Both the position numbers and the translations under genes were made by a program. The notes below the pieces were generated by a model. The model did no database searches and had not been told where the DNA came from. It saw nothing but the letters and a program-made list of their open reading frames with translations. A stretch of 32,000 nt of DNA from Gemmata obscuriglobus (lineage in GTDB: Bacteria > Planctomycetota > Planctomycetia > Gemmatales > Gemmataceae), in contig NZ_CP042911.1 in the NCBI RefSeq assembly GCF_008065095.1, positions 7,980,001 through 8,012,000 on the forward strand. Direction: 5' to 3'. Shown piece by piece: positions 16,966 through 32,000 of the stretch (position 1 is its first letter; every line of letters begins with the position of its first letter).

Positions 16966-18114
16966 ATGAGCACCGAAATCGAATACAAACCGGGCCTTGA
17001 GGATGTGCCCGCCGCGAAATCCGCGGTCAGCTTCTTGGACGGCAAAAAGGCGGTGCTGGAGTACCGCGGCATCCCGGTCGAGGTCCTCGCGAAAGAGAGC
17101 AGTTTTGAAGAGGTGTCGTGGCTGCTGGTCAAAGGCGACCTGCCCACCCAGAAGCAGCTCGCCGAGTTCGACCACGACCTGCGCCAGCGCCGGGCCATCC
17201 ACTTCCGCCTCAAAGACCTGATCAAGTGCATGCCCGCCGACGGGCACCCGATGGACGCCCTGCACGCCGGCGTCGCGGCGCTCGGGATGTTCTACCCGTG
17301 CCCGACCGTCAGCAACCCCGCCAAGAACTGGGACGCCACCTGCCGCCTGATCGCCGCGCTGCCCACCCTCGTGGCCGCGTTCGCCCGGGTCCGCCGGGGC
17401 GAGGAGATCCTCGACCCCCGCAGCGACCTGGACCACGCCGGCAACTTCTACTACATGCTGTTCGGCAAGGAGCCGTCGCCCGCCACCCGTAAAGTGCTCG
17501 ACGCGTGCCTCATCCTGCACGCCGAGCACCAGATGAACGCCAGCACGTTCACCGCCCGCGTCACCGGCTCGACCCTGGCGACCCCCTACCACACCATCGC
17601 GTCCGCCATCGGCTCCCTGTCCGGCCCGCTGCACGGCGGCGCGAACGAGGAGGCGCTGCGCCAGTTCGAGGAAATCGGCGGCCCGGAACAGGTGAAGGGC
17701 TGGCTGGACGCCAAGCGTGCGGTCGACTCGAAGTACAAGGTGATGGGCATGGGGCACCGGGTGTACAAGGTGAAGGACGCCCGCGCCACCGTGCTGCAAG
17801 AGATCGCCGAGCACATGTTCGCCGAGACCGCCCGGCCCAAGACCTACGAAACGGCCCTCGAACTGGAGCGGCTCTGCGCCGGGATCTACGGCCCGAAGGG
17901 CATCTACCCGAACGTGGACTTCTATTCGGGCGTGGTGTACCAGTCGCTCGGCATCCCGACCGACGTGTTCACCCCGATCTTCGCCATCGCCCGCGTGAGC
18001 GGGTGGCTCGCCCACTGGACGGAGCAGCTCGTCGGCAACCGCATCTTCCGGCCGGAGCAGATCAGCATCGGCAAGACGGACGTGAAGTACGTGCCGCTGG
18101 AGCAGCGGGCGTAG
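16966..18114 (+). CDS. gltA: Citrate synthase
   Basis: 382 aa. KPGLEDVPAAKSAVSFLDGKKAVLEYRGIPVEVL, ILHAEHQMNASTF, GPLHGGANE, MGMGHRVYKVKDAR and NVDFYSG are hallmark citrate synthase motifs. Confidence 0.92.
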   Translation: MSTEIEYKPGLEDVPAAKSAVSFLDGKKAVLEYRGIPVEVLAKESSFEEVSWLLVKGDLPTQKQLAEFDHDLRQRRAIHFRLKDLIKCMPADGHPMDALHAGVAALGMFYPCPTVSNPAKNWDATCRLIAALPTLVAAFARVRRGEEILDPRSDLDHAGNFYYMLFGKEPSPATRKVLDACLILHAEHQMNASTFTARVTGSTLATPYHTIASAIGSLSGPLHGGANEEALRQFEEIGGPEQVKGWLDAKRAVDSKYKVMGMGHRVYKVKDARATVLQEIAEHMFAETARPKTYETALELERLCAGIYGPKGIYPNVDFYSGVVYQSLGIPTDVFTPIFAIARVSGWLAHWTEQLVGNRIFRPEQISIGKTDVKYVPLEQRA

Positions 18115-18661
18115 TGGGGCACGCCCCGGCGGACCGGGCGCCCGCCCGGTGTGCCCTCCCCGAAAGGAGCACGACCGGCGCCCAGTCGTTTCACGTTCGC
18201 GCAGTGCGATTCGGGCCGTTGAATGTGGTCCGCTCACTCTGTGAGCGGTTGCTCGGCGCGCCCGGTTCGCTCTGCGAGCATGCCGCCCTGCGCGCCTTCC
18301 AACGTCACGGCGCGCCCTCCCGAAGTCGCGCCGCGCGTCCGATCAGCTTCGTGAGCTTGCGGACCCTGTTGCTGGGTGCCACACACATCTGAGGCCCGAG
18401 TATCCGCTCACGGCCTGACCGGGCCGCACTCAAGTCCCGCACCTCCGACACACGCGCGACACAAATTCCGCGCGCGACGGTCGAACTTCACCCGCGACCG
18501 CGGAACAACCGACGTGCCACCTCCGCGGAAGCCGTCGTCACGGGACCGGTGCTGATTTCGGCGTACTGCGAGGCGCTCAAGGTCCACGCCGCGCGCGGCT
18601 CGGCGGGCCGCGTTCGCTGCGCCACGACTGGATTCCCCTTTCACCACCCCGGAATTTCCCC

Positions 18662-20377
18662 ATGTCTGCGACCACAGACCTGATCCCGGTGCGCGCCCTG
18701 AACCAGGTGACGTACTGCCCGCGCCTGTACTACCTCCAGTACGTCGATTGCGTGATGCCCACCAACGAGCACGTCGAGGGCGGGCTGCACGACCACCGCC
18801 GGGTGGACGCCCCGGACCTGAAGAACAAGACCCGCACCGACCGCGGCACCGCCACCAGCCGCGGGGTCGCGCTGTCCAGCGAGCGGCTCGGCGTCACCGG
18901 CGTGCTCGACGTGCTCGAGGAGAAGGGCGGCGCTCGGTACCCGGTGGAGACCAAGCACGGGAGCGCCCCGCACGACGCCGACGGCAAGCCCACCGTGTGG
19001 GACAACGACGCGGTCCAACTGTGCGCCCAGGCGATGCTGCTGGAGGAGGCGTTCGGGCAGCCGGTGCCGCACGGGTTCCAGTTCCACGCCGGGAGCCGCG
19101 AGCGGGTGCCGCTGGAGTTCGCGCCCGAGCTGCGCCAGAAGACCCGCGACGCCGTCGCCCGGTGCCGGGAGCTGGCGGCCCTCGCCGCCCCGCCGCCGCC
19201 CCTTCCGCCCGAGCTGCGGCACCGGTGCTTCGGGTGCTCGCTGGCGCCGGTGTGCCTGCCCGAAGAGACCCTGTACCAGCTCGGGCACCCGGCCCCGGGG
19301 GCGGACGCGGCCGAGAAGCCGGTCCCGGAGCTGAAGAAGGTCATCCCGATGACCGACGACGGCGCGGTGCTGTACCTCCAGGAGCCCGGCACCTCGGTGG
19401 GCAAGCGCAGCGAGCACCTCGTGGTGAAGAAGGAGGGCCAGGAACTCACCCGGGTGCCGATGCACGCGATCCGGCAGGTGGTGGTGTGCGGGAACGTGCA
19501 GGTGAGCACGCAGGCACTGGAGACGCTGGCGGCCAACGACATCGCGGTGGCGTATGTGACCGGGCACGGGCGGTTCATCGGCTCGTTCGTGCCCGCGCCC
19601 GCCAAAAACGTGTCCCTGCGCGAGGCCCAGTTCCGCACGTTCAACGACCCCTCCGCGTGCCTCGACCTCGCGAAGGCCGTAGTGCGGGCGAAGCTGAGCA
19701 ACCAACGGGCGCTGCTCATGCGGAGCTTGCGGGGGGAGGGCGAGGCGCGCGGCAGTCACGAGTATTCGGCGAAGGGCATTTACGGGCTGCTCGGGGCGCT
19801 CGACGCCCAGACCTCGGTGGAGTCCGTTCTCGGGATCGAGGGCCAGGGCGCGGCCCTGTACTTCGGGGACTTCGGGCGGTTCCTGAAGCAGCCGCCGACC
19901 GGGAAGGGGTTCGACTTCACCACCCGCAACCGGCGCCCGCCCCGCGACCCGGTGAACGCGCTGCTGTCGTTCGCGTACGCGATGCTGGCGAAGGACTGCT
20001 TCTCGGTCGCGTGTACCGTCGGGTTCGACCCGTACAAGGGCTTCTTTCACGTGGGCCGGCACGGGAAGCCGTCGCTGGCGCTGGACCTGATGGAGGAGTT
20101 CCGCCCGGTGATCGCGGACTCGGTGGTGCTGACGCTCATCAACAACGAGGCGCTCACGCCCGACGACTTCATCATCTGGCGGGACGCGTGCAGCCTCACG
20201 GAGAAGGGGCGGCGGGCGTTCTTCGCGGCGTACGAGCAGCGGAAGGCGACGGTGGTGACGCACCCGGTGTACGGGTACCGGATGAGCTACGCGCGGATGC
20301 TGGAGGTGCAGGCCCGGATGCTGGCGGCGTTCGTGCGCGGCGGCGTCCCGAGCTACACCGGGTTCACGGTGCGGTGA
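18662..20377 (+). CDS. cas4-cas1: CRISPR-associated Cas4-Cas1 fusion protein
   Basis: 571 aa. The N-terminal Cas4/RecB-like domain has one early Cys (VTYCPRLYYLQY) and a C-terminal cluster HRCFGCSLAPVC. The Cas1 domain follows (VLYLQEPGTSVGKRSEHLVVKK..., NALLSFAYAML, GFFHVGRHGKPSLALDLMEEFRPVIADS). The stop overlaps the cas2 ATG (TGATG). Confidence 0.93.
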   Translation: MSATTDLIPVRALNQVTYCPRLYYLQYVDCVMPTNEHVEGGLHDHRRVDAPDLKNKTRTDRGTATSRGVALSSERLGVTGVLDVLEEKGGARYPVETKHGSAPHDADGKPTVWDNDAVQLCAQAMLLEEAFGQPVPHGFQFHAGSRERVPLEFAPELRQKTRDAVARCRELAALAAPPPPLPPELRHRCFGCSLAPVCLPEETLYQLGHPAPGADAAEKPVPELKKVIPMTDDGAVLYLQEPGTSVGKRSEHLVVKKEGQELTRVPMHAIRQVVVCGNVQVSTQALETLAANDIAVAYVTGHGRFIGSFVPAPAKNVSLREAQFRTFNDPSACLDLAKAVVRAKLSNQRALLMRSLRGEGEARGSHEYSAKGIYGLLGALDAQTSVESVLGIEGQGAALYFGDFGRFLKQPPTGKGFDFTTRNRRPPRDPVNALLSFAYAMLAKDCFSVACTVGFDPYKGFFHVGRHGKPSLALDLMEEFRPVIADSVVLTLINNEALTPDDFIIWRDACSLTEKGRRAFFAAYEQRKATVVTHPVYGYRMSYARMLEVQARMLAAFVRGGVPSYTGFTVR

Positions 20378-20661
20378 TGGACAGCTACCTGGTGTGTTAC
20401 GACATCTCGAACCCGAAGCGGCTCCGCAAGGTCGCGCGGACGTGCGAGGACTTCGGGTATCGCAAGCAATTATCTGTCTTTCTGGTTCGCGTGAGCGCTA
20501 CCGACTTTGTACGATTGCGTTCCCGCTTGTATGACATCATCGACCTGAGCGAAGACCAAGTGCTGTTCATCCCGCTTTCGGAGCAGGGGTTGCAGCGCAT
20601 GGAGGCGATCGGCCGACCGACCGACCCGCACGATAAGAACGACGTGGTGATGATTTTGTGA
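20377..20661 (+). CDS. cas2: CRISPR-associated endoribonuclease Cas2
   Basis: 94 aa, MDSYLVCYDISNPKRLRKVARTCEDFGYRKQLSVFLVRVSATDF...DQVLFIPL, the classic Cas2 ferredoxin-fold pattern. Hidden inside track ORF 18748..20661. Confidence 0.9.
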   Translation: MDSYLVCYDISNPKRLRKVARTCEDFGYRKQLSVFLVRVSATDFVRLRSRLYDIIDLSEDQVLFIPLSEQGLQRMEAIGRPTDPHDKNDVVMIL

Positions 20662-20673
20662 GGAGTTCGCCCG

Positions 20674-23253
20674 ATGAATAAGAACGAGTTTGCCACCGCC
20701 TTTGCGACGCTCGCGGGCACTCCCGGCCCTTTTCCTTGGCAGTGGGAGTTGTATAAGCGGTTCGTCGCTGGTGACATCCCGGCGTCGTGTAACCTGCCAA
20801 CCGGTTTGGGCAAAACATCGGTCATCCACGTCTGGCTGCTCGCTCTGTCTGTGAACAACAAGCTCCCGCGGCGGTTGGTGTACGTTGTGAACCGGCGCAC
20901 CGTGGTGGATCAGACGACAAATGAAGTGGAGAATCTCCGAGAGCGCTTGCCGGATGTCCCGGAGGTCGAAGCCGCGCTTTGGGCGTTGTGTTCGACACGC
21001 CCAGAGAAGCCTGACCCGAAGAAGGACCGGCCGCTCGCGATCAGCACACTACGCGGCCAATTCGCGGACAACCGCGAGTGGAGCGCCGACCCGTCGCGCC
21101 CGGCGGTGATCTGCGGCACCGTAGACATGATCGGCTCGCGGCTGCTGTTCAGCGGGTACGGATGCGGGTTCAAGACGCGCCCCTTGCACGCCGGGTTCTT
21201 GGGCCAGGACGCGCTCATCGTCCACGACGAAGCGCACCTGGAACCGGCGTTTCAGGAGTTGCTCGTAGAGATCGAAAAGGAACAGCAGCGGTGCAAGGAC
21301 TTCCGGCCGCTTCGGGTGGTGGAACTGACCGCGACCTCGCGGGCCGATGGCCCGCCGCCGTTCACCCTCTCCGACGAGGATTACAAGGACGAAACCGTTC
21401 AACGACGCGTCGGCGCGAAGAAGGCGCTTCACCTCCAGCCGAACAAGGACGAGAAGAAACTCGCGGACGAGATTGCGGACCTTGCGCTGAAGCACAAAGA
21501 ATCCGGCAGTGCGATTCTGGTTTTCGTCCGCAAAGTTGATGACGTTGATAAAGTCACGAAGAAGCTCCCGAAAGGTTTGTTCGAGCAACTGACCGGAACC
21601 CTTCGCGGGTTGGAACGCGACGACCTCGTGAAGAAGCCGATTTTCCAGCGGTTCTTACCGCCCTCGAACCGCAACACGACCGCCGCACCGCAACCGGGCA
21701 CGGTGTACCTCGTCTGCACGAGCGCGGGCGAGGTGGGGGTGAACATTTCGGCGGATCACCTCGTCTGCGACCTCTCGACGTTCGAGAGCATGGCCCAGCG
21801 GTTCGGCCGCGTGAACCGCTTCGGGGAACGTACCGACACCGAGATTCACGTCGTTCACCCAAGAGAAGCGGACTTCGATGGCGAGAATACGATCGACGTG
21901 CGGCGGATGCGGACTCTCACTTTGCTTCTGCAACTTAACGGCCAAGGCAGTCCGGCCGCACTCGGGATGCTCGACCCGAAGGCGCGCCAGGAGGCGTTCG
22001 CGCCGACACCGACCATCCTCCCCGTGTCCGACATTCTGTTCGATGCGTGGGCGCTCACAACCATCCGCGCCAAGTTGCCCGGGCGCCCGCCGGTCGAACC
22101 GTATTTGCACGGATTGGCAGAATGGCAACCGCCGGAAGCGCACGTCGCGTGGCGCGAGGAAGTGGGCTGCATTACGGGCGCCCTGCTGACGCAGTATCCG
22201 CCCCAAGACCTGCTCGAAGATTATCCGCTGAAGCCGCACGAACTGCTTCGCGACAACTCGGGCCGCGTGTTCGATCGGCTGAAGAAGTTGAAGGCCGATG
22301 CAGGAACTCCTGTATGGGTCGTGGACGATGACGATTCCGTCCGCGTCACCACGCTCGGCGAGTTGATCGACGCGGGTAAAGAGGCCATCGAGCGCCGAAC
22401 CGTTCTCCTCCCGCCCGGAGCCGGTGGGCTTGCGAACGGAATGTTGGACGCGACATCGACCTCCGCAGATGACGTGGCCGACCGATGGTTCGCGGACGAA
22501 TTGCGGACACGGCACCGCCGCATTCGCGTCTGGGACGATGACACCGTGCCCAGCGGAATGCGACGAATTCGCAAGGCGATCGACATCAAGCCCGATGCGG
22601 AAGAGGCAGAGGAAGAAGAAACCGGCACGCGCTTCTGGTACTGGTTCGAGCTATCATCCGGCGGCGACGGGGACGGTTCCAAGAACACGACGGGAGCCGT
22701 ACTGTGGCAGGTTCACACCGACGATGTGGTGAAAAACACGGCGGCGATCGTCGAGAAGCTTGGCCTGGGAGACTTGGTCAAGGCTTTCGAGATCGCGGCG
22801 AAGTGTCACGACCTCGGCAAGAGGCGCAAGGTGTTTCAGACCGTTCTTGGTAACCGGGCCTATCCAGCGGTCACGCTGGCAAAATCGGGTCAAAAGGGCG
22901 GGCGGATCGCGGAGACATACCGGCACGAGTTCGGCTCGCTCATCGACACCGCGAATCCGGATCTAGCCCCAGGTTTCGCGGGCCTCTCAGAAGACCTGAA
23001 AGCGTTTGTGCTGCACGTCATCGCGACGCACCACGGGCGCGGTCGCCCGCATTTCCCAGAACCCGAAGCGTTCGACCCCGAGCGCCCGGACGCCGACGCC
23101 AAGACGGTTGCCCGCGAGGTGCCGCGTCGGTTCGCGCAATTGCAGCGCAAGTACGGGCGGTGGGGGCTGGCGTACCTGGAGTCGCTGTTGCGCGCCGCGG
23201 ACTACGCCGCAAGTGCCAAGCCGTCGGCGTTCGTGACGGAGGGCGTGAAATGA
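20674..23253 (+). CDS. cas3: Cas3 helicase with C-terminal HD nuclease domain (type I-G/I-U architecture)
   Basis: 859 aa with GAGGAG 8 nt before the ATG. Helicase motifs: LPTGLGKTS (I), VHDEAHL (II), CTSAGEVGVNI (V), QRFGRVNR (VI). The HD domain is at the C-terminus (KCHDLGKRR, YRHEFGS, IATHHGRGRPHF, LLRAADYAAS). Confidence 0.92.
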   Translation: MNKNEFATAFATLAGTPGPFPWQWELYKRFVAGDIPASCNLPTGLGKTSVIHVWLLALSVNNKLPRRLVYVVNRRTVVDQTTNEVENLRERLPDVPEVEAALWALCSTRPEKPDPKKDRPLAISTLRGQFADNREWSADPSRPAVICGTVDMIGSRLLFSGYGCGFKTRPLHAGFLGQDALIVHDEAHLEPAFQELLVEIEKEQQRCKDFRPLRVVELTATSRADGPPPFTLSDEDYKDETVQRRVGAKKALHLQPNKDEKKLADEIADLALKHKESGSAILVFVRKVDDVDKVTKKLPKGLFEQLTGTLRGLERDDLVKKPIFQRFLPPSNRNTTAAPQPGTVYLVCTSAGEVGVNISADHLVCDLSTFESMAQRFGRVNRFGERTDTEIHVVHPREADFDGENTIDVRRMRTLTLLLQLNGQGSPAALGMLDPKARQEAFAPTPTILPVSDILFDAWALTTIRAKLPGRPPVEPYLHGLAEWQPPEAHVAWREEVGCITGALLTQYPPQDLLEDYPLKPHELLRDNSGRVFDRLKKLKADAGTPVWVVDDDDSVRVTTLGELIDAGKEAIERRTVLLPPGAGGLANGMLDATSTSADDVADRWFADELRTRHRRIRVWDDDTVPSGMRRIRKAIDIKPDAEEAEEEETGTRFWYWFELSSGGDGDGSKNTTGAVLWQVHTDDVVKNTAAIVEKLGLGDLVKAFEIAAKCHDLGKRRKVFQTVLGNRAYPAVTLAKSGQKGGRIAETYRHEFGSLIDTANPDLAPGFAGLSEDLKAFVLHVIATHHGRGRPHFPEPEAFDPERPDADAKTVAREVPRRFAQLQRKYGRWGLAYLESLLRAADYAASAKPSAFVTEGVK

Positions 23254-24089
23254 GTTTCAGCGTAGCTGTGGACCCGACTAATCCGGGCCAGTTCTTTGCG
23301 TGCTGCGGGTTGCTGGAGTTGGCTGACCGTCTCTGGCCCGGCGCGGAAGGTTGGTTCGAGGACGGAACGTTTCATGTGTCGACGGGTGATATCGCAACGT
23401 TAATTGACCAGCTTGTCTGCCTGCGATTCGTTAGTTCGCTCGGCGACGACGGATTGAAGCGGCTTGGCAGCCTACTGAGTGCCGACAAATCGACACTAAC
23501 GGAACTGGACAAGCAAGATAAAGAGCGATTGCGAAAGGCTTGGCAAGTTGAGCGAGTTCAAATCCCCGCTCCGTTCGATTTCTGGTTGGATTGGTGGTGG
23601 AATGATAAATCTGGCGTGACGCTGCTCAAGACTTGGGCGGCGAAACAATTCGTTCTGTCGATGGCTAACCCGATGCTGTCCGCTCTTAAGAGCCTGACCT
23701 GGGACAGCAGCAGCAGGGAAAACTGTTTGCAGCGGACAGCGAAATTGTCAGGGTTGCCCTTTTATTTTGATGCAGCAAACAACACTCAAAATACGCCGCG
23801 CGACAATGGTTTTGCTCCGGGGGCTGTAAAGTCAGCTCCCAACGATAGACCGCTGCTTGAACTGCTCGCGTTTGTCGGGTTGCAGCGGTTTCGTCCACAT
23901 CGACCCGATAAAGCTGAGCGAATTCTGTACGCAACTTGGTCCATTCCCCTTCCGCCTTCTGTCGCTTCGGTAGCAGCAGCGGGGATGTTGAACGTGACAG
24001 GTAGTCGAGCCTTTGAATTCCGCATGCTTTACCGGACTGAGTATATGAAAGCGTTTCTTCCTGCCCAAGCCGTGCGAGGTGTCAAATGA
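23250..24089 (+). CDS. Short Cas8u/Csb3-like protein (paralogue A; putative large-subunit-type component)
   Basis: 279 aa. ATG 23250 overlaps the cas3 stop (ATGA) and its own stop overlaps the csb1 ATG (ATGA). The N-terminus MSFSVAVDPTNPGQFFACCGLLELADRLWPGAEGWF resembles the N-terminal motif I associate with the Csb3/Csx17 (Cas8u) families. Its position between cas3 and cas7 is the usual large-subunit slot. Visibly lower G+C than the flanks. Confidence 0.6.
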   Translation: MSFSVAVDPTNPGQFFACCGLLELADRLWPGAEGWFEDGTFHVSTGDIATLIDQLVCLRFVSSLGDDGLKRLGSLLSADKSTLTELDKQDKERLRKAWQVERVQIPAPFDFWLDWWWNDKSGVTLLKTWAAKQFVLSMANPMLSALKSLTWDSSSRENCLQRTAKLSGLPFYFDAANNTQNTPRDNGFAPGAVKSAPNDRPLLELLAFVGLQRFRPHRPDKAERILYATWSIPLPPSVASVAAAGMLNVTGSRAFEFRMLYRTEYMKAFLPAQAVRGVK

Positions 24090-25213
24090 GCGAGTTAACC
24101 AAGTTCGACAATTACCTGAGCGCTGACGGCCCCGCGGCGCTTGTCATCCGCGAATGGCTAATGCCAGCCGAAGGTGCGGATGGCGTGCTTTTCCCGGCAA
24201 CGTTCGCGCCCGGTGGCAATTTTCCAGGTGGTTACAACATTGACACCGATCCGAGTGGTAAAAACGTCTGCCTCATCGACAGCGTAGGGTCGCAAGCGAA
24301 TCGCATCGAGCCGATGTTCATGCCTGACAAGTGTGATGGCAAGTACGCGCACCTCGTTCCGCAAATCGTGGTGAAAGCTGGAGAGAAAGAGGTGAGTATC
24401 CTCGAAGCCGGACATCGCGCCGGCGATGCAATCGTTCGTTGCTCTTCACTTCAGAGGGAACTGCACGACGCATTTAATGACGTGTTGAAAGGTGACGCTA
24501 CAAAGCTCGCGAAGATTGCGCCGACATCACTGGTTTTCGGCGTGTGGGACTCGCGTGACACACAGGCCAAACTCCCGCGAGTCGTAGCGTCTACGGTTCG
24601 TGCCGAACAGGTGCGCCCGCTCACACGCGGCGCAGTCTACATGCCGCCGGTAGATTACGCGGCTCTTGAAGTGTTCAGCGAAGAAGAGAAAGCGAAAGCC
24701 GAAGGCGACAACAAGAGCCCGTTAGCGAAACGCGGATTCGTTCACGTTCCGGCGTCAGCGTCTCACGGCGGCGTCATCGCGGACGGCGGTGTTCGGCGCG
24801 ACGCTACGCTCGGTCTTGCGGCTCTGCGTCTGCTTCACGCGGGAAAGGACCCGGCGCGGACACTCGCACTTCGCCGCTACATCCTTGGCCTCGCGCTGGT
24901 CGCGTTTACGCACAACCCATCTGGCTACCTGCGGCAAGGGTGTTTGCTCGTCCTCGATTCGGACAAGCCGCGTGAGTTCGTTGAAGTTCACCCTTCCGGC
25001 GAGCGGAAGCCAGTAACGATTACGCCGAAAGTGGCGCTGGAGTATGCCACCGCGAGCGCAAAAGAGTTCGGCGTCGGTGATAGCAGAACGGTGCCTTTCG
25101 AGAAGGAGCGGGCGAAGACTGATCTGAAAGAGGGGAACAAAAAAACGAAAGGAAAAGCGAAGAAATCAAAAGAGAAAAGTGCTGAGGAAACGCCCGAACA
25201 GGAGGCCCAGTAG
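24086..25213 (+). CDS. csb1: Type I-G (I-U) Cas7 RAMP protein Csb1
   Basis: 375 aa. LMPAEGADGVLFPATFAPGGNFPGGYNIDTDPSGKNVCLIDSVGSQANRIEPMF matches the Csb1/Cas7u signature (..P.gG....fP.TY......Y.....g.....iDSv.SQANR.E). Unusual Lys-rich C-terminal tail. Confidence 0.85.
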   Translation: MSELTKFDNYLSADGPAALVIREWLMPAEGADGVLFPATFAPGGNFPGGYNIDTDPSGKNVCLIDSVGSQANRIEPMFMPDKCDGKYAHLVPQIVVKAGEKEVSILEAGHRAGDAIVRCSSLQRELHDAFNDVLKGDATKLAKIAPTSLVFGVWDSRDTQAKLPRVVASTVRAEQVRPLTRGAVYMPPVDYAALEVFSEEEKAKAEGDNKSPLAKRGFVHVPASASHGGVIADGGVRRDATLGLAALRLLHAGKDPARTLALRRYILGLALVAFTHNPSGYLRQGCLLVLDSDKPREFVEVHPSGERKPVTITPKVALEYATASAKEFGVGDSRTVPFEKERAKTDLKEGNKKTKGKAKKSKEKSAEETPEQEAQ

Positions 25214-26712
25214 TGCCTTCTCAATTCTGCATTACGGTGCGGTTTCTTCAGCCATGTGCGCACGGACGTGGTGACGGCGAAGAACCTGAGTGGCCGCCGT
25301 CACCGTTACGGGTGTTTCAGGCGCTCGTTGCCGCGGCTGCGGCTCGGTGGAACGAGCGCACGCGACTTGAATACGCTGTGCCCGCCCTTGAGTGGCTCGC
25401 GAAGCAACCAGCGCCTACGGTGATCGCGTCGCAAGGCGTGCCATCGGGCGTGAAATACCGCCTTTACGTCCCCGATAATGTGGCCGATAAGGTGGCGAAG
25501 GCGTGGAGTGGCGGAAATACGAGTGCGAGCATCGCGGATTCCCGAACCGAAAAGGACGTTCGCCCCACGCATCTGATCGGGAAAAGCGACGAGCTCCCGG
25601 CGGTTAATTACCTCTACCCCATTGGGGACACCGATTCGGAGTTCGCCACGCACAAGGAAACGCTCGTCACCGCGGCGCGGAGCGTCACGCACCTCGGCTG
25701 GGGCGTGGACATGGTCGCGGGGGACGCGCGTGTGCTGTCCGAAGAGGAAGCCGCGAACCTCACCGGCGAGCACTGGCGCCCGGCGGCGGGCGCGTCCACA
25801 ACCCAACTCCGCGCCCCGCGCGCCGGGACGCTGAACGCACTGGCGCAGAAGCACGAGGCGTTTCTGAACCGGCTCTCGGCCGACGGGTTCAAGCCGGTGC
25901 CGCCGCTGACGGTGTTCGACACGGTCGGATACCGGCGCGACACCGAACCGGCCGCGCGCGAGTGGGTCGCGTTCCGCATCACGTCGGTCGATCCGGACGC
26001 CCCGAACCCGTCGTTCGACGCCCCGGCCAAGTGCCGCGACGTGGCGGCGTGGGTGCGGCACGCGACCGGCGAAGTGTGCCGGAACTGGCCGTTTTCCGAT
26101 TTCGCCTCGTTCGTTCACGGGCACACCGAGAGCGGGTTGCAAACGAAGGGGGAACGTGCCGACGAGCGGTTCATGTACCTCCCGCTACCGAGCATCGAAC
26201 GCCGGGGCGACCGAAGGGAGCACGTCGGAGCAATCCGCCGGGTGCTGGTCGCCGCGCCGCCGGGGTTCGGGGAGCGCATCGAGTGGATTCGCCGCCGGTT
26301 GCCCGGGCAGGAACTCGTCTGGGACAACCGGGCGCAGGGCCTTCTGAACGCACTGCCGGATTCGGACTGGGTGCTCCGGCGGTACACCGAGAATGCGCAG
26401 ACGTGGTCCACGGTGACGCCCGTGATATGGCCGGGGCACGACGACCACGACCCCGAGAAGGCTGCTCGCCTCCTGCGGAAAGCGTTCGTGGATGCGGGCT
26501 TTGCGCGGGCGGTGGTCGATGCCATCACCGAACTGGACTGGCGCCCGGTGGGTTTCCGGGCCGGGGCCGAGTTGGCTTCGCGCTACGCCTTGCCCGACCG
26601 GCTCAACGGGCGCCGGTATCACGTGCGGGTGCGGTTCGCGCACCCGGTTCGCGGGCCGCTGGCGGTCGGGGCCGGGCGGTATCGCGGGTTGGGAGTGTTC
26701 GCCGCCGAGTAG
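25213..26712 (+). CDS. csb2: Type I-G (I-U) Csb2 (Cas5-Cas6 fusion-type RAMP)
   Basis: 499 aa. GTG 25213 overlaps the csb1 stop (TAGTG). The N-terminus FCITVRFLQPCAHGRGDGEEPEWPPSPLRVFQALVAAAAARW is the Csb2 hallmark (EWPPSP.R.FQALV). The Gly-rich C-terminus VGAGRYRGLGVF is RAMP-like. Confidence 0.85.
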   Translation: MPSQFCITVRFLQPCAHGRGDGEEPEWPPSPLRVFQALVAAAAARWNERTRLEYAVPALEWLAKQPAPTVIASQGVPSGVKYRLYVPDNVADKVAKAWSGGNTSASIADSRTEKDVRPTHLIGKSDELPAVNYLYPIGDTDSEFATHKETLVTAARSVTHLGWGVDMVAGDARVLSEEEAANLTGEHWRPAAGASTTQLRAPRAGTLNALAQKHEAFLNRLSADGFKPVPPLTVFDTVGYRRDTEPAAREWVAFRITSVDPDAPNPSFDAPAKCRDVAAWVRHATGEVCRNWPFSDFASFVHGHTESGLQTKGERADERFMYLPLPSIERRGDRREHVGAIRRVLVAAPPGFGERIEWIRRRLPGQELVWDNRAQGLLNALPDSDWVLRRYTENAQTWSTVTPVIWPGHDDHDPEKAARLLRKAFVDAGFARAVVDAITELDWRPVGFRAGAELASRYALPDRLNGRRYHVRVRFAHPVRGPLAVGAGRYRGLGVFAAE

Positions 26713-26752
26713 TACGGACCTCAACGCCGAACTGCCGGAGCGGTTCTGGCGC

Positions 26753-27832
26753 GTGGTGCGGAAGTGGGGCTGGTGGGGCGCGGCCTACCGGGAGGCGGTG
26801 TTCCGGTTGGCGGACCACGCGCAGAGCGCCGCCGAGCAGATCCGCGACGCGGCCCCGGCACCGGTGGCAACCGGGTGGGTGTCGCGGCCGGCGCTGGCGT
26901 CGCGGGCGGAAGGTTATGCGCTCCCACTGACGGGGCTCGATGGGGCGAACCCGCTCGCGTTCCTCGCCGCCTTGGGAACGCTCCGGTTGGCGGAGCGTGC
27001 GTACCCGGGGACTCGCCTGAGCTGGAAAGCACAAGGGAGTTGGACACCGGTTCTCCACCTTCCGCAAGAAATCACCCCAACGGCCCTAATCGCGAACCTT
27101 CTCGCACAAGCCGTTCGGACCCGACGGTGCGTCACGTTCGCTCAAGATGTCAAAATTCTGGCCGAAGAGTTTTGTGCCTTCGAGCGGGAGGCCCGTCTCG
27201 CGATCCATACCGACCGGGAGTTCTCAGAATTCCTTGTCGCTTGCGCCAATCCACTCGTAACGATCCAAGGCGGTCCGAACGCCGGGAAGACTAAACCGAC
27301 GGAGTTCTATTTCATCGCAGGTCAGCAAAAGCTGCTGAAGCAGGCTTTGGAGATCGCCACAGCCGCGACGCAAGAGCATCTCACGAAGGCGTTGTTTGCG
27401 TACTGGACTTATGACGACCCGCTTGAGGGGTTGTCGTTGAGGTGGGATCCGCGGGACGACCTTCGCTACGCGACGCGATTTCACAACCCAAGCAAGGACA
27501 AATCAAAGGGGAAGAAGGGTTCCGTCCTCGGCGCCAATCGCTTGGCGTTCGAGGCTCTGCCGCTGTTCCCGTGCTTCGCACGGGGCTCCCGTCTCGTCAC
27601 CACGGGATTCCTCGTGCTTGACCGCCGCCCATTCTTCACTTGGCCGATTTGGGAACCTGCTTGGGGGCTTAGTTCGGTGCGATCCGTACTCGGGGCTCTT
27701 GCGGCTCCGCGAGACGGGTCGGAGGTGCGACACATCAAGACGCCTGACCAAATCGGCGTGACTGTTTGTTATCAGTGCGAAAAGGTCTCAAACAGTGATT
27801 ACAGTAACTTCACTCCGTCCAGAGCGCTGTGA
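26753..27832 (+). CDS. Second Cas8u/Csb3-like protein (paralogue B); start codon uncertain
   Basis: The frame is open from 26492 to 27832, but it contains no ATG after the csb2 stop (26712). The first canonical start is GTG 26753 (GGAG 12 nt upstream); later in-frame candidates are GTG 26798/26864/26879 and TTG 26807. It contains LTGLDGANPLAFLAALGTLRLAERAYPGTRLSW, homologous by eye to DPTNPGQFFACCGLLELADRLWPGAEGWF of paralogue A. The C-terminal LGANRLAFEALPLFP...FFTWPIWEPAWGLSSVRSV parallels RPLLELLAFVGLQRF...ILYATWSIPLPPSVASV of A. Confidence 0.6.
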   Translation: MVRKWGWWGAAYREAVFRLADHAQSAAEQIRDAAPAPVATGWVSRPALASRAEGYALPLTGLDGANPLAFLAALGTLRLAERAYPGTRLSWKAQGSWTPVLHLPQEITPTALIANLLAQAVRTRRCVTFAQDVKILAEEFCAFEREARLAIHTDREFSEFLVACANPLVTIQGGPNAGKTKPTEFYFIAGQQKLLKQALEIATAATQEHLTKALFAYWTYDDPLEGLSLRWDPRDDLRYATRFHNPSKDKSKGKKGSVLGANRLAFEALPLFPCFARGSRLVTTGFLVLDRRPFFTWPIWEPAWGLSSVRSVLGALAAPRDGSEVRHIKTPDQIGVTVCYQCEKVSNSDYSNFTPSRAL

Positions 27833-28414
<582 letters not shown>

Positions 28415-28613
28415 TGACACGCGAGCGGCCCGGTGGTGAAACGCGTCGTCGGGCGTTTCGCGCCGAAGGTCTTTGACAACTAACGAGTTTCCACCGGGCG
28501 CCAGTTCGCCACCGCTCGCAAGTCGCAACCGACGGTTTGGTCAGCGGGTTGTGGCAACTGGTGTCCCAGAGTTTACGTCATGACAGCGTTTCGCGCTCAA
28601 CCGCTCGCGGAGA

Positions 28614-28641
28614 TTGCGATAATCCGTTGCGACGATATAAT
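28614..28641 (+). promoter_or_regulatory. Sigma70-like promoter in the CRISPR leader
   Basis: TTGCGA (28614-28619), a 16-nt spacer, then a perfect TATAAT (28636-28641). The -10 element ends 14 nt before the first repeat (28656). It lies at the 3' end of the 238-nt (28418-28655) leader. Confidence 0.5.
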
Positions 28642-28655
28642 TTCTGAGAATCGAA

Positions 28656-31600
28656 GTTCTCCGCGGCTCATAGCCGCGGCCGAATTGAAGCTCCAGCGGC
28701 TCCACCGTGTACTCATCCGCATCGAGCAGGTTCTCCGCGGCTCATAGCCGCGGCCGAATTGAAGCAGCGGGTGCTGCCCATTCAGCACCCGTTTCGTGAA
28801 GGGTTCTCCGCGGCTCATAGCCGCGGCCGAATTGAAGCATTGAAATTTGCAAGGCAGGAACTTCGGTTCCTGCCGTTCTCCGCGGCTCATAGCCGCGGCC
28901 GAATTGAAGCAAGTTGGGCACTGGTTATGCGATCTTTGACGATAACGTTCTCCGCGGCTCATAGCCGCGGCCGAATTGAAGCCTGACGGTTATACCGGCA
29001 CCGGTCGCGCGGATTCCGGTTCTCCGCGGCTCATAGCCGCGGCCGAATTGAAGCCGGGCGGCGAGACTGTCAGCCCTGCGACGGCTGAGTTCTCCGCGGC
29101 TCATAGCCGCGGCCGAATTGAAGCCGCAGTGCCAACGTACATTCAAGTTGAAGACAATGAGTTCTCCGCGGCTCATAGCCGCGGCCGAATTGAAGCAACT
29201 TCTACCTTGACTACGCGAGTTGGAATCCCTCGGCGTTCTCCGCGGCTCATAGCCGCGGCCGAATTGAAGCCCTTCGTCCACCAACTTCTGAATACCGGGG
29301 ACGAGCGTTCTCCGCGGCTCATAGCCGCGGCCGAATTGAAGCTCGCCACCATTCATCGGCCACTTCTCGTAGAACAGCACGAGTTCTCCGCGGCTCATAG
29401 CCGCGGCCGAATTGAAGCCAGCGTTGTCTCGACAAAATGACTACCGCCCTGATGCAGTTCTCCGCGGCTCATAGCCGCGGCCGAATTGAAGCTGAAGGAT
29501 CAAGTCGAAGTTCGTCAGAAGACCGATGCGTTCTCCGCGGCTCATAGCCGCGGCCGAATTGAAGCAATCAAATCGCCACGGGTCAAGCGGCAGCGGTGGC
29601 CTTGTTCTCCGCGGCTCATAGCCGCGGCCGAATTGAAGCAGCCAGCGATCGCACACGTTTATTCCACTACCGCCGTGTTCTCCGCGGCTCATAGCCGCGG
29701 CCGAATTGAAGCGTCAACTGGTATTATGACAAACTTACCGTCGATCGGGTTCTCCGCGGCTCATAGCCGCGGCCGAATTGAAGCACACTCTGCGGTGTAA
29801 ACCGCAAATTCGATATTTCGGGTTCTCCGCGGCTCATAGCCGCGGCCGAATTGAAGCGACCTTAGTTGCTTCCTCTTCGTCGTCCTCTTCCTCGTTCTCC
29901 GCGGCTCATAGCCGCGGCCGAATTGAAGCTGGCCGCCGCGACAGTCTCGACGCCCTTGACCACTACGTTCTCCGCGGCTCATAGCCGCGGCCGAATTGAA
30001 GCAGCGAAGACTGCGTCCGAATAACTCGAAGCACTTGTTCTCCGCGGCTCATAGCCGCGGCCGAATTGAAGCCAAGGCACGGCCAAGGAAAAGGAAGCTC
30101 TCCAACAGGTTCTCCGCGGCTCATAGCCGCGGCCGAATTGAAGCCCGTTGGCGGCCGTGCCGCTGAGCAGCTCGCGGGCGTTCTCCGCGGCTCATAGCCG
30201 CGGCCGAATTGAAGCGCGTGCGTCTGGTTGTACGCCCCCACCGCCACCCGCAGCCGGTTCTCCGCGGCTCATAGCCGCGGCCGAATTGAAGCTGCTTGCC
30301 CATCAGCACGCCCGCGAGGTAGTCGGGGGTTCTCCGCGGCTCATAGCCGCGGCCGAATTGAAGCACGAGCCTCGCGGTGACGTTCGAGGCGAGCCCGGAC
30401 GGGTGTTCTCCGCGGCTCATAGCCGCGGCCGAATTGAAGCGGTCAACACGGCCGCGCGGGCCGCCGTGACCGAGAAGGGGTTCTCCGCGGCTCATAGCCG
30501 CGGCCGAATTGAAGCCTCACCGAGCTAGAAGGCTTTCCGCGGGGGCAGTACGTTCTCCGCGGCTCATAGCCGCGGCCGAATTGAAGCGGCTTGTGCCCCA
30601 GGTCCGTCCGCCACGAGTCGGCTTGTTCTCCGCGGCTCATAGCCGCGGCCGAATTGAAGCTCGACTTGGCCATGTGTGCAGGGTAGCCGTGCAACCGTTC
30701 TCCGCGGCTCATAGCCGCGGCCGAATTGAAGCTCTCCCATAGCTCGCTGCCCTAAAGACGTTGAACAGGTTCTCCGCGGCTCATAGCCGCGGCCGAATTG
30801 AAGCTTAAAGGTTCTTGCGCGGCCAGCAGCTAGCTCGGCTGTTCTCCGCGGCTCATAGCCGCGGCCGAATTGAAGCTACTTGGTTTGGTGGTGATGCTAA
30901 TACCCGGCTCTAGTTCTCCGCGGCTCATAGCCGCGGCCGAATTGAAGCTCTGACTTAACCGCAGGCACTACACCGGACGGCACAGGTTCTCCGCGGCTCA
31001 TAGCCGCGGCCGAATTGAAGCTTCGCACCCGGGTGGGCCGCCTTGCAGGCCCGCTGCCAGGTTCTCCGCGGCTCATAGCCGCGGCCGAATTGAAGCACAC
31101 TGACGTGCGAAGCGGGCCTGTGGCGGCTGGCGATGTTCTCCGCGGCTCATAGCCGCGGCCGAATTGAAGCCACGAACGGCGTAAACTGGCCCTTGCCCGG
31201 AACCGCGTTCTCCGCGGCTCATAGCCGCGGCCGAATTGAAGCCGTCTGCTCGCGTTGAGCGATTGTGTATAGCGTTTCGTTCTCCGCGGCTCATAGCCGC
31301 GGCCGAATTGAAGCCTGTATGCGGCCGCTTTGGTTTGAGTCGCGGTCACGTTCTCCGCGGCTCATAGCCGCGGCCGAATTGAAGCCACGGCTCGTCTGAC
31401 AGGTTTGGAGTTTCACCGCACGGGTTCTCCGCGGCTCATAGCCGCGGCCGAATTGAAGCCCAATTCGCAACTGCGCACACGTATTCCGCGGTACACGGCG
31501 CCGCCTCAGAAGTTCTCCGCGGCTCATAGCCGCGGCCGAATTGAAGCAGCCTGCCCCCGAGCGGCCGGCACGTGCGGCCGATGTTCTCCGCGGCTCATAG

Positions 31601-32000
31601 CCGCGGCCGAATTGAAGCCAGCTTTACCGCAAGGCCATCCGTGAGGGCAAGTGATGGTTCTCCGCGGCTCATAGCCGCGGCCGAATTGAAGCTGACCCTG
31701 ACGCCAGCCAGCCCCAACGCCAACGCGCGGGTTCTCCGCGGCTCATAGCCGCGGCCGAATTGAAGCGGTCAATTCGGCCGCGGCCTGGATCAGCGGCCCG
31801 GGTTCTCCGCGGCTCATAGCCGCGGCCGAATTGAAGCCGCTGCCGGTGGTCGAACTGGTATTCCGCACTGGTCGTTCTCCGCGGCTCATAGCCGCGGCCG
31901 AATTGAAGCAGGTCGCTCACCACCAGCGTGCGGGCGGGGATGTGGTTCTCCGCGGCTCATAGCCGCGGCCGAATTGAAGCCCAGCGCCGAGGAGCTGTCA
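28656..32000 (+). CRISPR. CRISPR array: at least 46 copies of a 36-nt repeat, truncated by the window edge
   Basis: The repeat GTTCTCCGCGGCTCATAGCCGCGGCCGAATTGAAGC has its first copy at 28656-28691 and its last complete copy at 31945-31980. I saw no variant copy by eye. There are 45 complete spacers of 34-41 nt (36 most common) plus one of 52 nt, and a partial 46th spacer at the edge. The repeat forms a 7-bp stem CCGCGGC/GCCGCGG with loop TCATA and ends in ATTGAAGC, a type I-style 5'-handle sequence. That ending supports + strand transcription, co-directional with the cas genes. Confidence 0.99.

Follow-up and report, generated by a model that had tools for sequence, protein, structure and literature searches.

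The stretch of Gemmata obscuriglobus DNA analysed here, 32,000 nt in length and referred to below as the window, carries a CRISPR-Cas locus of type I-G whose genes and array all lie on the forward strand (Table 1), at the positions that an initial annotation of the same DNA had given. The assignment to subtype I-G, which is typified by csb2 (PMC9638904), holds, with the profiles for Csb2, the Cas4-Cas1 fusion, Cas2, Cas3g and Csb1 all matched; the Cas4-Cas1 fusion scores 671 bits with NF049935 against a cut-off of 560, Cas3g scores 643 bits with TIGR02621 against a cut-off of 400, and Csb1/Cas7g (TIGR02570) and a Cas8g-type protein (TIGR04106), both of which mark I-G membership, also exceed their cut-offs. 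The HD nuclease domain of Cas3g occupies residues 681-846, C-terminal to the helicase, and the protein is without an extension domain of the kind described below. The start of cas2 overlaps the stop codon of cas4/cas1 by 1 nt, and the ATG of cas8g2 overlaps the stop of cas3 (ATGA). Other points of the initial annotation were borne out, namely that the adaptation genes cas4/cas1 and cas2 really do precede the effector genes, that two short proteins labelled as Cas8g sit on either side of csb1-csb2, and that a full-length Csx17 is absent, there being no match of about 700 aa to Csx17 in the locus and no Csx17-type match for any open reading frame with the NCBIfam and PADLOC models. The Cas3-like N-terminus of the 359-aa reading frame and the pseudogene downstream of it had been overlooked.

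Table 1. Features of the I-G locus, in coordinates of the window, with the length, profile match or observation on which each is based
Feature	Coordinates	Strand	Length and basis
cas4/cas1 fusion gene	18662..20377	+	571 aa; NF049935 cas4g_cas1g profile 1-546/546, E 1e-201
cas2	20377..20661	+	94 aa; TIGR01573 and PF09827
cas3g	20674..23253	+	859 aa; TIGR02621 1-854/854, E 1e-192
cas8g2	23250..24089	+	279 aa; TIGR04106 1-282/282, E 2e-121
csb1 / cas7g	24086..25213	+	375 aa; TIGR02570 and PF09617
csb2 (Cas5-Cas6 fusion, I-G signature gene)	25213..26712	+	499 aa; TIGR02165 2-491/492, E 1e-89; PF09609
Gene for 359-aa protein, GobsT_67660	26753..27832	+	359 aa; NF049934 1-298/299, E 2e-67
Putative imported Geobacter-type cassette cas3g-cas8g2-csb1-csb2	20662..26722	+	Identity pattern and GC
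Mosaic segment within cas3	22166..22989	+	aa 497-772; break in DNA homology to L005
Relic of Cas3 C-terminal helix	26723..26839	+	39 aa; TIGR02621 positions 820-854
Foreign allele body of 359-aa reading frame	26983..27856	+	DNA homology to G. algarum interrupted
Pseudogene, displaced 3' half of G. algarum-type extension allele	27857..28417	+	Aligns to intact gene of L005
CRISPR leader	28418..28655	+	Nearly identical to L005
CRISPR array	28656..32000	+	46 repeats; continues past window end

The array comprises 46 identical 36-nt repeats (GTTCTCCGCGGCTCATAGCCGCGGCCGAATTGAAGC) within the window, and at least 46 in all, with spacers of 34-41 nt and one of 52 nt; its repeat is nearly the same as that of L001, which together with L006 represents the extension-type I-G loci of the Gemmatales discussed below. 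The leader contains a promoter-like site at 28614-28641 (TTGCGA-16-TATAAT), the only promoter-like match between 26400 and 28760, where shuffled sequences give a mean of 0.2. None of the spacers is common to the corresponding locus of Gemmata algarum (L005), though that locus is 98% identical, and none matches elsewhere in the window; scans of the whole window for tRNAs and Rfam families found no integration site or other RNA feature. The intactness of all the genes, the identity of the 46 repeats, the promoter-like site of the leader and the wholly different spacers would lend indirect support to crRNA-guided DNA interference and spacer acquisition.

The first of the two short proteins, of 279 aa, matches TIGR04106 (the GSU0052 family, Cas8g2) from end to end of the 282-position model, with 405 bits against a cut-off of 125, and in PADLOC it carries the label Cas8g 'GSU0052/csb3', with the models PDLC00996 and PDLC01375 likewise matched at full length; in some sources the product of cas8g2 is named 'Csb3' or 'Cas8c'. 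Its homologues number more than 4000, each of about 280 aa, and cas8g2 lies between cas3 and csb1 here and in all compared loci in which both flanks are present. The initial annotation had taken the Geobacter reference locus to encode a single Csx17 of about 700 aa, but the GSU0052 family model spans only 282 positions and the 279-aa protein is a full-length member of that family. Nor are the effector genes rearranged, as had been proposed, since from 20674 to 26712 they follow the order of the Geobacter interference module, cas3-cas8u2-cas7-cas5/6. The AF2 model of Cas8g2 (pLDDT 82.7) gave no significant structure match in Foldseek, the best being a chain of the type I-A Cascade 7tr6 at E 0.59. 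Gene position, the curated family names and the Geobacter experiment cited below all point to Cas8g2 as the probable large subunit of the cassette. In Cas8g2 loci the usual order is cas3-cas8g2-csb1-csb2-cas4/1-cas2, without an extension gene; among those with a complete csb2, the adaptation genes lie downstream in 27 and an extension gene in two.

The second short protein, of 359 aa, starts at a GTG at 26753 and is identical in sequence to the annotated GobsT_67660 of G. obscuriglobus. It is made up of a Cas3 relic, a linker and a complete domain of the 'Cas3-extension family' with a Cas8g-like fold, and it matches NF049934 with 228 bits against a cut-off of 65 and the PADLOC model PDLC01514 (Cas8g 'CAS-I-U effector_LS') over positions 3-285 of 287. 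The best Foldseek match of its AF2 model (pLDDT 78.5, pTM 0.78), and the sole significant one, is the type I-G effector structure 8b2x, at E 1.5e-5; chains of type I-B and I-A Cascade structures rank behind it, with weak matches short of significance. PDB chains searched by sequence and profile with both short families gave chance matches only, and no Csx17 match. No new class of effector is present here; both short proteins would receive names from the NCBIfam and PADLOC models now in use. The initial annotation had allowed that the locus would be a known sub-variant if both short proteins were catalogued at full length and the gene order were common: the proteins are indeed so catalogued, but the seven-gene order is rare, with Cas8g2 and an extension gene occurring together in four of 160 related loci.

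Elsewhere, the extension gene keeps close company with cas3, being fused to it or directly following it in 76 of 79 extension-family loci, and of these 79 loci only L005 contains cas8g2 as well. In-frame joining of the extension to cas3 is seen in about 15 of 80 loci, most of them from Planctomycetota, and L001 and L006 each have one open reading frame that matches both TIGR02621 and NF049934. The context of the 359-aa gene, which follows csb2 and lies 3.5 kb from the end of cas3, is atypical for NF049934, to which it belongs by sequence. A reading of it as a Csb2 fusion was rejected, as the gene is in the +1 frame relative to csb2 and behind a TAG stop, with no sign of frameshifting. It has no ATG start, and one must go 12 nt upstream of the GTG to find a GGAG; no terminator was found between csb2 and the reading frame or downstream of the latter. 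Damaged copies of the extension gene are present in two further loci whose operons are otherwise intact: the copy in L101 is truncated and frameshifted, and that in L108 lacks profile positions 1-39 and with them the invariant NPLAFLAALG motif. The extension domain, often fused covalently to Cas3 and with a predicted Cas8g-like fold, is put forward as a candidate for the large subunit missing from the widespread I-G variant with neither Cas8g2 nor Csx17. The 359-aa protein of the window is best viewed as a second protein with a predicted fold like the Cas8g N-domain, one that the cassette should not need.

The origin of this protein is suggested by its N-terminus. The Cas3 relic begins at 26723, 11 nt past the csb2 stop, so that 10 of its codons precede the annotated GTG start; it hardly differs from the C-terminal end of Cas3 in the fused genes of L001-L004 and L006, and has 53% identity with the C-terminus of the window's own Cas3. 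Duplication of the resident cas3 was rejected as its source, since the relic resembles the Cas3 of the Gemmatales fusion genes much more closely. Because the 359-aa protein carries this relic, its gene appears to have arisen through truncation of a fusion gene. The original partners of the protein, that is, extension-type Csb1, Csb2 and Cas3, are gone from the locus.

The body of the gene has a history of its own. DNA homology to G. algarum (98%) ends at 26982 and picks up again at 27857, with the left breakpoint falling within the conserved NPLAFLAALGTL motif, and the foreign body in between shows 35% identity with the G. algarum allele, as against 63-67% with Gemmatales Cas3::extension genes. 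The slot in L005 holds a different, also intact, extension allele, and the genes flanking it are 98-99% identical between the two Gemmata species. The pseudogene, contained in a 190-codon open reading frame (27845-28417), is a decayed partial copy of the extension family, which aligns to the middle and 3' part of the intact L005 gene with 93.5% identity over the first 170 bp and gives a partial match to NF049934 of 53 bits, below the cut-off of 65. Three lesions mark it: 72 bp are duplicated in tandem (27984-28055), one nucleotide has been gained near 28188 (+1) and one has been lost near 28395 (-1).

Comparison of the remaining genes with other loci suggests that the locus draws on two I-G variants. 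Cas4/1 is 80-85% identical to that of the extension-type L001 and L006 and only 37-41% identical to that of ordinary Cas8g2 loci, and Cas2 is 87-91% identical to that of L001 and L006; taken together, Cas4/1 and Cas2 are 33-46% identical to their counterparts in ordinary Cas8g2 loci. The cassette proteins, by comparison, show 55-74% identity with their counterparts from Cas8g2-type loci and 25-30% with those from L001 and L006, and the GC content falls from 70-72% in cas4/1 to 58-63% at 20 to 26 kb. On its right side the cassette was taken to end immediately ahead of the Cas3 relic, which starts at 26723. Within the cassette, DNA homology of cas3 to L005 is lost at 22165 and regained at 22990, with Cas3 identity to G. 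algarum of 97% over aa 1-496, 38% over aa 497-772 and 87% over aa 773-859. The window version of this mosaic segment resembles that of L101, and the G. algarum version that of L098. Extension-type loci were considered as its donor and rejected, since at only about 30% identity the segment is not from them.

Taking these patterns together, we consider it probable that a Geobacter-type effector cassette replaced genes within a Gemmatales Cas3::extension frame, stranding the extension, the body of which was swapped later. Identity patterns and composition suggest an order of events in which the ancestor would have been a Gemmatales locus of the form cas4/1-cas2-csb1-csb2-cas3, with cas3 fused to a Cas8g-like extension and the array next to it. 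A Geobacter-type cas3-cas8g2-csb1-csb2 (about 20662-26722) would then have taken the place of csb1-csb2 and of cas3 save its last 40 or so codons, so that what was left of the old fusion, its 3' end, became an independent reading frame of 359 aa beside the leader. Later, the body of this reading frame may have been exchanged for another allele by recombination within its most conserved motif, and the displaced 3' half of the earlier allele would have been pushed downstream and have decayed there (27857-28417). Such a replacement would account both for the adaptation-first order and for the stranding of the fusion gene's 3' end as a free-standing reading frame, and the two short proteins would stem from two different I-G variants brought together through recombination. 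Neither the cassette donor nor a pre-replacement locus was recovered among the loci compared.

As to the present role of the stranded gene, we lean slightly towards continued expression of the 359-aa protein and its retention as an auxiliary, optional subunit that would dock either on Cas3 or on the complex at its 5'-handle end; failing that, it would be a young relic. The latter, which we regard as a serious though somewhat less probable alternative, would make the 359-aa reading frame a functionless remnant, still undisrupted, and the locus simply an I-G system of Geobacter type in which junk separates csb2 from the leader. Decay of the extension in L101 and L108, which have the same architecture, argues that it is dispensable, but the same slot in the two Gemmata species holds two very different intact alleles between near-identical flanking genes. 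A pseudogene fragment lies in the window itself, yet this relic of 560 bp, a product of the same event and of equal age, has acquired three disruptive indels as against none in the 874 bp of the neighbouring body. The non-ATG start and weak signals, the deletion of the cognate partners and the sufficiency of the four-gene cassette in Geobacter would all suit a remnant; the reading frame is nevertheless of full length, gives a confident Cas8g-like model and keeps all invariant residues of the family (the 35 invariant columns of the 25-sequence alignment A1). Its amino-acid divergence is not faster than that of the fused homologues, its branch being no longer than theirs, and in pairwise dN/dS comparisons with its four nearest homologues dS is saturated, which leaves the branch lengths as the usable measure.

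If the stranded copy does work, the window would represent a natural test of the interchangeability of large subunits between variants. A bolder proposal, which we think unlikely, is that the 359-aa extension acts as a second, exchangeable large-subunit module able to dock either on Cas3g or on the conserved ATTGAAGC 5'-handle end of a Cascade of the Cas8g2 type, such that swaps of its body and of Cas3 aa 497-772 would change PAM range, Cas3 recruitment or anti-CRISPR sensitivity; were it true, nature would here have equipped a type I system with two Cas8-like subunits as alternatives.

The direction of the replacement could also be reversed, with a Geobacter-type locus gaining adaptation genes and an extension gene in two separate events and no cassette being replaced, as identity patterns reveal the variant kinship of the parts and not the order of events. 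We find this quite improbable, for the effector genes would have to be bounded exactly by two or more insertions of independent origin, and the repeat and leader would need to be of extension-type origin besides; moreover, the relic lies within 11 nt of the csb2 stop, as a single replacement ending inside cas3 predicts, and it is the cassette, not its flanks, that deviates in GC from the upstream chromosomal genes. Least probable of all is the split or duplicated Cas8 of the initial annotation, in which the 279-aa and 359-aa proteins would both be needed in one Cascade of an undescribed I-G variant: PADLOC gives both of them Cas8g labels, both are intact in two Gemmata species, both start with a common N-terminal motif and a beta-alpha-beta-beta-alpha arrangement, and neither appears to have the Cas11-like helical C-domain of Csx17, so that another supplier might be needed, but their similarity is confined to that motif of about 70 residues (BLASTP 32% over 73 aa), with an hhalign probability of 3% for the two families leaving paralogy unsupported beyond it, both resemble N-domains and so are not two complementary halves of Csx17, no other Cas8g-type candidate was detected in the widespread variant to which each belongs (only 4/160 loci having both), the Cas3 relic marks the 359-aa protein as a truncated fusion product, the extension is degraded in L101 and truncated in L108 where the other operon genes are intact, and the Geobacter four-gene cassette interferes without any extension protein.

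Cassette exchange is generally accepted for CRISPR-Cas systems and is, to our knowledge, seldom documented at base resolution. The window offers a base-resolved case in which the effector cassette of one I-G variant appears to lie within the adaptation, leader and array frame of another, with junctions that can be dated via the Cas3 relic and the pseudogene. On the model of the Geobacter and Thioalkalivibrio systems, Csb2 would cut the pre-crRNA and cap the complex, Csb1 would form its backbone, the 279-aa Cas8g2 would serve as the large subunit of the cassette and Cas3g would degrade the target, while new spacers would be inserted by Cas4/1-Cas2 on the leader side of the array.

The I-G (formerly I-U) locus of Geobacter sulfurreducens comprises cas3 (GSU0051), cas8u2/Cas8g2 (GSU0052), csb1 (GSU0053), csb2 (GSU0054), cas4/cas1 and cas2. 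The window has the same four effector genes in the same order, with TIGR02621, TIGR04106, TIGR02570 and TIGR02165 all matched over their full length, and the Cas4-Cas1 fusion is common to both. Interference in Geobacter was reconstituted with cas3, cas8u2, cas7 and cas5/6 (PMC6547450), and the interference mechanism in the window is presumably the same. Unlike the Geobacter type, in which the adaptation genes are downstream, the window has them upstream, and the space from csb2 to the leader holds one more Cas8g-like gene together with a fragment of a pseudogene.

In the other I-G variant represented by Thioalkalivibrio sulfidiphilus (PDB 8b2x), Csx17 is the Cas8g1 protein, of 720 aa, and Cas3 is retained in the effector only when Cas8g is present (PMC9638904). 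Cas3 being an integral, Cas8g-dependent part of the effector is consistent with the natural Cas3::extension fusions. The window resembles this system in also having Csb2, Csb1 and Cas3g, and in the fold match of the 359-aa protein to 8b2x, but neither of its short proteins has the 720-aa length, the Cas11-like helical C-domain or a sequence match to Csx17.

Extension-type I-G loci, of which the Gemmatales L001 and L006 are examples, have the order csb1-csb2-cas3 with the NF049934 domain fused or next, and cas3 has the same position in Bifidobacterium loci without cas8u2. The window shares with L001 and L006 an array placed directly after the extension gene and a Cas3 C-terminal helix kept before the extension domain, but its csb1, csb2 and cas3 are of the Geobacter type, its extension lies away from Cas3 and Cas8g2 is present. 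Westra and colleagues, as cited in PMC6547450, reportedly described, in 2012, natural fusions of Cas3 with Cse1 (Cas8e) in type I-E, which would be a precedent for a large subunit joined to Cas3, as in the putative ancestor of the 359-aa gene; those fusions belong to another subtype and to other families, whereas in the window the fusion is broken, with about 40 residues of Cas3 left.

The genes and array described in the initial annotation were all found, on the forward strand and in the order given there, forming a real and apparently complete type I-G system built from catalogued parts. Ordinary chromosomal genes lie upstream, for example those for citrate synthase and a pseudouridine synthase, and the 279-aa and 359-aa products are identical to GobsT_67630 and GobsT_67660, respectively.

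Genes and array of the type I-G locus (window coordinates)
Feature	Coordinates	Strand	Remarks
cas4/cas1 fusion	18662-20377	+	571 aa; NF049935 full length
cas2	20377-20661	+	
cas3g	20674-23253	+	859 aa; TIGR02621 1-854/854; HD domain C-terminal
cas8g2 (279 aa)	23250-24089	+	ATG overlaps cas3 stop
csb1	24086-25213	+	
csb2	25213-26712	+	
359-aa ORF	26753-27832	+	GTG start
190-codon ORF	27845-28417	+	
Leader, then CRISPR array	array 28656 to window edge	+	46 identical 36-nt repeats

Since both short proteins fall into known families, the locus does not encode a new effector type. The 279-aa protein matches TIGR04106 (cas8c_GSU0052, 'type I-G Cas8g2') over 1-282 of 282 positions (405 bits, cut-off 125) and the PADLOC 'GSU0052/csb3' model; its homologues, of about 280 aa and often named Csb3 or Cas8c, number over 4000. 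For the 359-aa protein, NF049934 ('type I-G CRISPR-associated protein, Cas3-extension family') aligns over 1-298 of 299 positions (228 bits, cut-off 65) and the PADLOC Cas8g model 'CAS-I-U effector_LS' at full length. The suggestion that they represent a split or duplicated Cas8 finds no support: BLASTP aligns them only over 73 N-terminal residues at 32% identity, and hhalign gives the two family alignments a probability of 3%. Neither family matched any PDB sequence. In fold comparison, the AF2 model of the 359-aa protein (pLDDT 78.5, pTM 0.78) significantly matches only 8b2x, a type I-G effector structure (E 1.5e-5), with type I-B and I-A Cascade chains next as weak hits. For the Cas8g2 model (pLDDT 82.7) nothing was significant, and the best hit was a chain from 7tr6, a type I-A Cascade structure (E 0.59). 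Both models open with the same beta-alpha-beta-beta-alpha unit; on these predicted folds, each resembles a large-subunit protein of the N-domain type, and the two do not make up complementary halves of Csx17.

Gene order was compared across 160 loci, 80 from genomes, taken with the 359-aa family as anchor, and 80 from metagenomes, taken with Cas8g2 as anchor; all were then searched with the window's proteins. In extension-family loci the order is csb1-csb2-cas3(::extension) with cas4/1-cas2 on either side; cas3 lies directly upstream of the extension in 76 of 79, and the two are in frame in about 15 of 80, mostly from Planctomycetota, including the Gemmatales loci L001 and L006, where one ORF each matches TIGR02621 and NF049934. 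Cas8g2 is absent from these loci, with the sole exception of L005 from Gemmata algarum. Cas8g2 loci are ordered cas3-cas8g2-csb1-csb2-cas4/1-cas2; among those with a complete csb2, adaptation genes lie downstream in 27 and an extension gene only in L101 and L108, both of which, like the window, carry cas4/1-cas2 upstream. The seven-gene order thus occurs in 4 of 160 loci, so that, of the two signs by which the initial annotation would have recognised a known sub-variant, the catalogued families hold but a common gene order does not.

The scans also revealed other atypical arrangements. In L029 (4069-6545, a Phycisphaeraceae MAG), csb2 is immediately followed by an extension-family gene and this by cas4/1, with no cas3 in between and no Cas8g2 on the contig. 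Just 3' of the extension gene, several extension-type loci (L006 11079-11879, L072 2737-3777, L056 12983-13468) have a separate stretch similar to the Cas6-like C-terminal part of Csb2, and in their csb2 at the usual position only the N-terminal part matches the window's Csb2; Csb2 may thus be split or duplicated in this variant. HD-domain-plus-extension relatives of about 570 aa on long contigs (P0110, P0119, P0064; L013, L017) suggest that some I-G loci have a split Cas3 whose HD nuclease part alone is fused to the Cas8g-like domain.

The window locus is a chimera of two I-G variants. Its Cas4/1 shares 80-85% and its Cas2 87-91% identity with the L001 and L006 counterparts, compared with 33-46% for ordinary Cas8g2 loci, and its repeat differs from that of L001 by a few bases. 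Cas3, Csb1 and Csb2 show 55-74% identity to Cas8g2-type loci and 25-30% to L001 and L006. GC content drops from 70-72% in cas4/1 to 58-63% over the stretch at 20-26 kb. Beginning 11 nt past the csb2 stop, in the frame of the 359-aa ORF, a 39-residue stretch is nearly identical to the Cas3 C-termini of the fused genes (L001-L004, L006) but shares only 53% identity with the resident Cas3. A Geobacter-type cassette (about 20662-26722) would have replaced csb1-csb2 and most of cas3 in a Gemmatales extension-type locus. This single replacement is probably the simplest history, as one event would explain why the adaptation genes come first, why the array adjoins the effector genes and why the extension ORF is orphaned; no intermediate was found among the loci examined.

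A second exchange is visible by comparison with G. algarum, which has the same locus at 97.6-98.3% nucleotide identity. Cas4/1, Cas2, Cas8g2, Csb1 and Csb2 are 98-100% identical in protein sequence, but the 359-aa protein is 92% identical over its first 51 residues and 35% over the remainder. Homology ends at 26982, within the invariant NPLAFLAALGTL motif, and restarts at 27857, at a point equivalent to the middle of the intact extension gene of G. algarum, so that 27857-28417 is the displaced 3' half of an earlier allele. This pseudogene has acquired a tandem duplication of 72 bp as well as indels of +1 and -1, and scores under the NF049934 cut-off. The nearest relatives of the inserted body (26983-27856) are Gemmatales Cas3::extension genes (63-67% identity). 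Along the window, GC content is 58-63% at 20001-26000 (effector cassette) and 27001-28000 (swapped body), compared with 66-72% over most of the window.

Cas3 is itself a mosaic, being 97% identical to its G. algarum counterpart over aa 1-496, 38% over aa 497-772 (22166-22989, the post-helicase region into the first half of the HD domain) and 87% over aa 773-859. The window version of the middle segment is nearest L101 (65%) and the G. algarum version nearest L098 (56%). Only this segment and the extension body have diverged strongly in a locus that is otherwise 98% identical, so the two possibly interact or face diversifying pressure. The homology with G. algarum begins at 18648, 14 bp before the cas4/1 ATG, and the upstream genes (citrate synthase, 16966-18114; pseudouridine synthase; an LRR protein; a B12/radical-SAM enzyme) are not common to both; such different contexts at about 98% identity suggest recent horizontal transfer, and no tRNA or other integration signature was found in the window. 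The metagenome contig L101 shows the window's two-layer arrangement (13490-14140): first a window-type extension allele, then one of the G. algarum type, each reduced to a frameshifted remnant. Identity to the window is only 43% for its Cas8g2 but 85% for its Cas4/1; effector genes in this lineage seem to have been exchanged repeatedly.

We slightly favour the 359-aa protein being a retained, optional auxiliary subunit. That the ORF is instead a young relic is somewhat less than an even bet. The native partners are gone, the GTG start has weak upstream signals, the extension gene is truncated and frameshifted in L101 and lacks the first 39 profile positions in L108 while the remainder of each operon is intact, and the four-gene Geobacter cassette suffices for interference (PMC6547450). 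Against a relic, the ORF is intact with a full-length HMM match, retains all columns invariant in the 25-sequence family alignment and yields a confident, Cas8g-like model, and the corresponding slot in G. algarum holds another allele that is also intact. There is no excess amino-acid divergence relative to fused homologues, the only usable measure of selection given saturated dS, and 874 bp contain no disruptive indel against three in the 560-bp relic of the same event, a rough comparison that takes indel rates as equal. The obligatory two-part large subunit envisaged by the initial annotation, formed of the 279-aa and 359-aa proteins, is improbable.

In the proposed mechanism, Cas4/1-Cas2 would add spacers at the leader end and a promoter-like site (28614-28641) would drive the array, whose repeats Csb2 would cut, the repeat end ATTGAAGC yielding an 8-nt 5' handle. 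Csb1 would form the backbone of the complex and Cas8g2, by analogy, the large subunit that recruits Cas3g, in line with descriptions of other I-G systems (PMC9638904, PMC6547450). The window and G. algarum arrays have no spacer in common, which suggests spacer turnover. All 46 repeat copies (28656-31980) end in GAAGC, and the same repeat in G. algarum (L005 11343-21026) ends in G (103 copies) or T (30 copies); window spacers are usually 34-41 nt, with one of 52 nt.

The locus adds something modestly new: two I-G variants combined in a rare hybrid that carries a stranded, later re-swapped Cas8g-like Cas3-extension gene beside a datable pseudogene, a combination on which we found no paper. The three I-G variants differ considerably in large-subunit size, Csx17 (Cas8g1, 720 aa) being that of the Thioalkalivibrio variant (PMC9638904). 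The 'missing' Csx17 stems from an inaccurate reference, as a protein of about 700 aa in the Geobacter locus is at odds with the 282-position family model based on GSU0052, and the Geobacter interference construct, cas3-cas8u2-cas7-cas5/6 (PMC6547450), has the same effector gene order as the window at 20674-26712.
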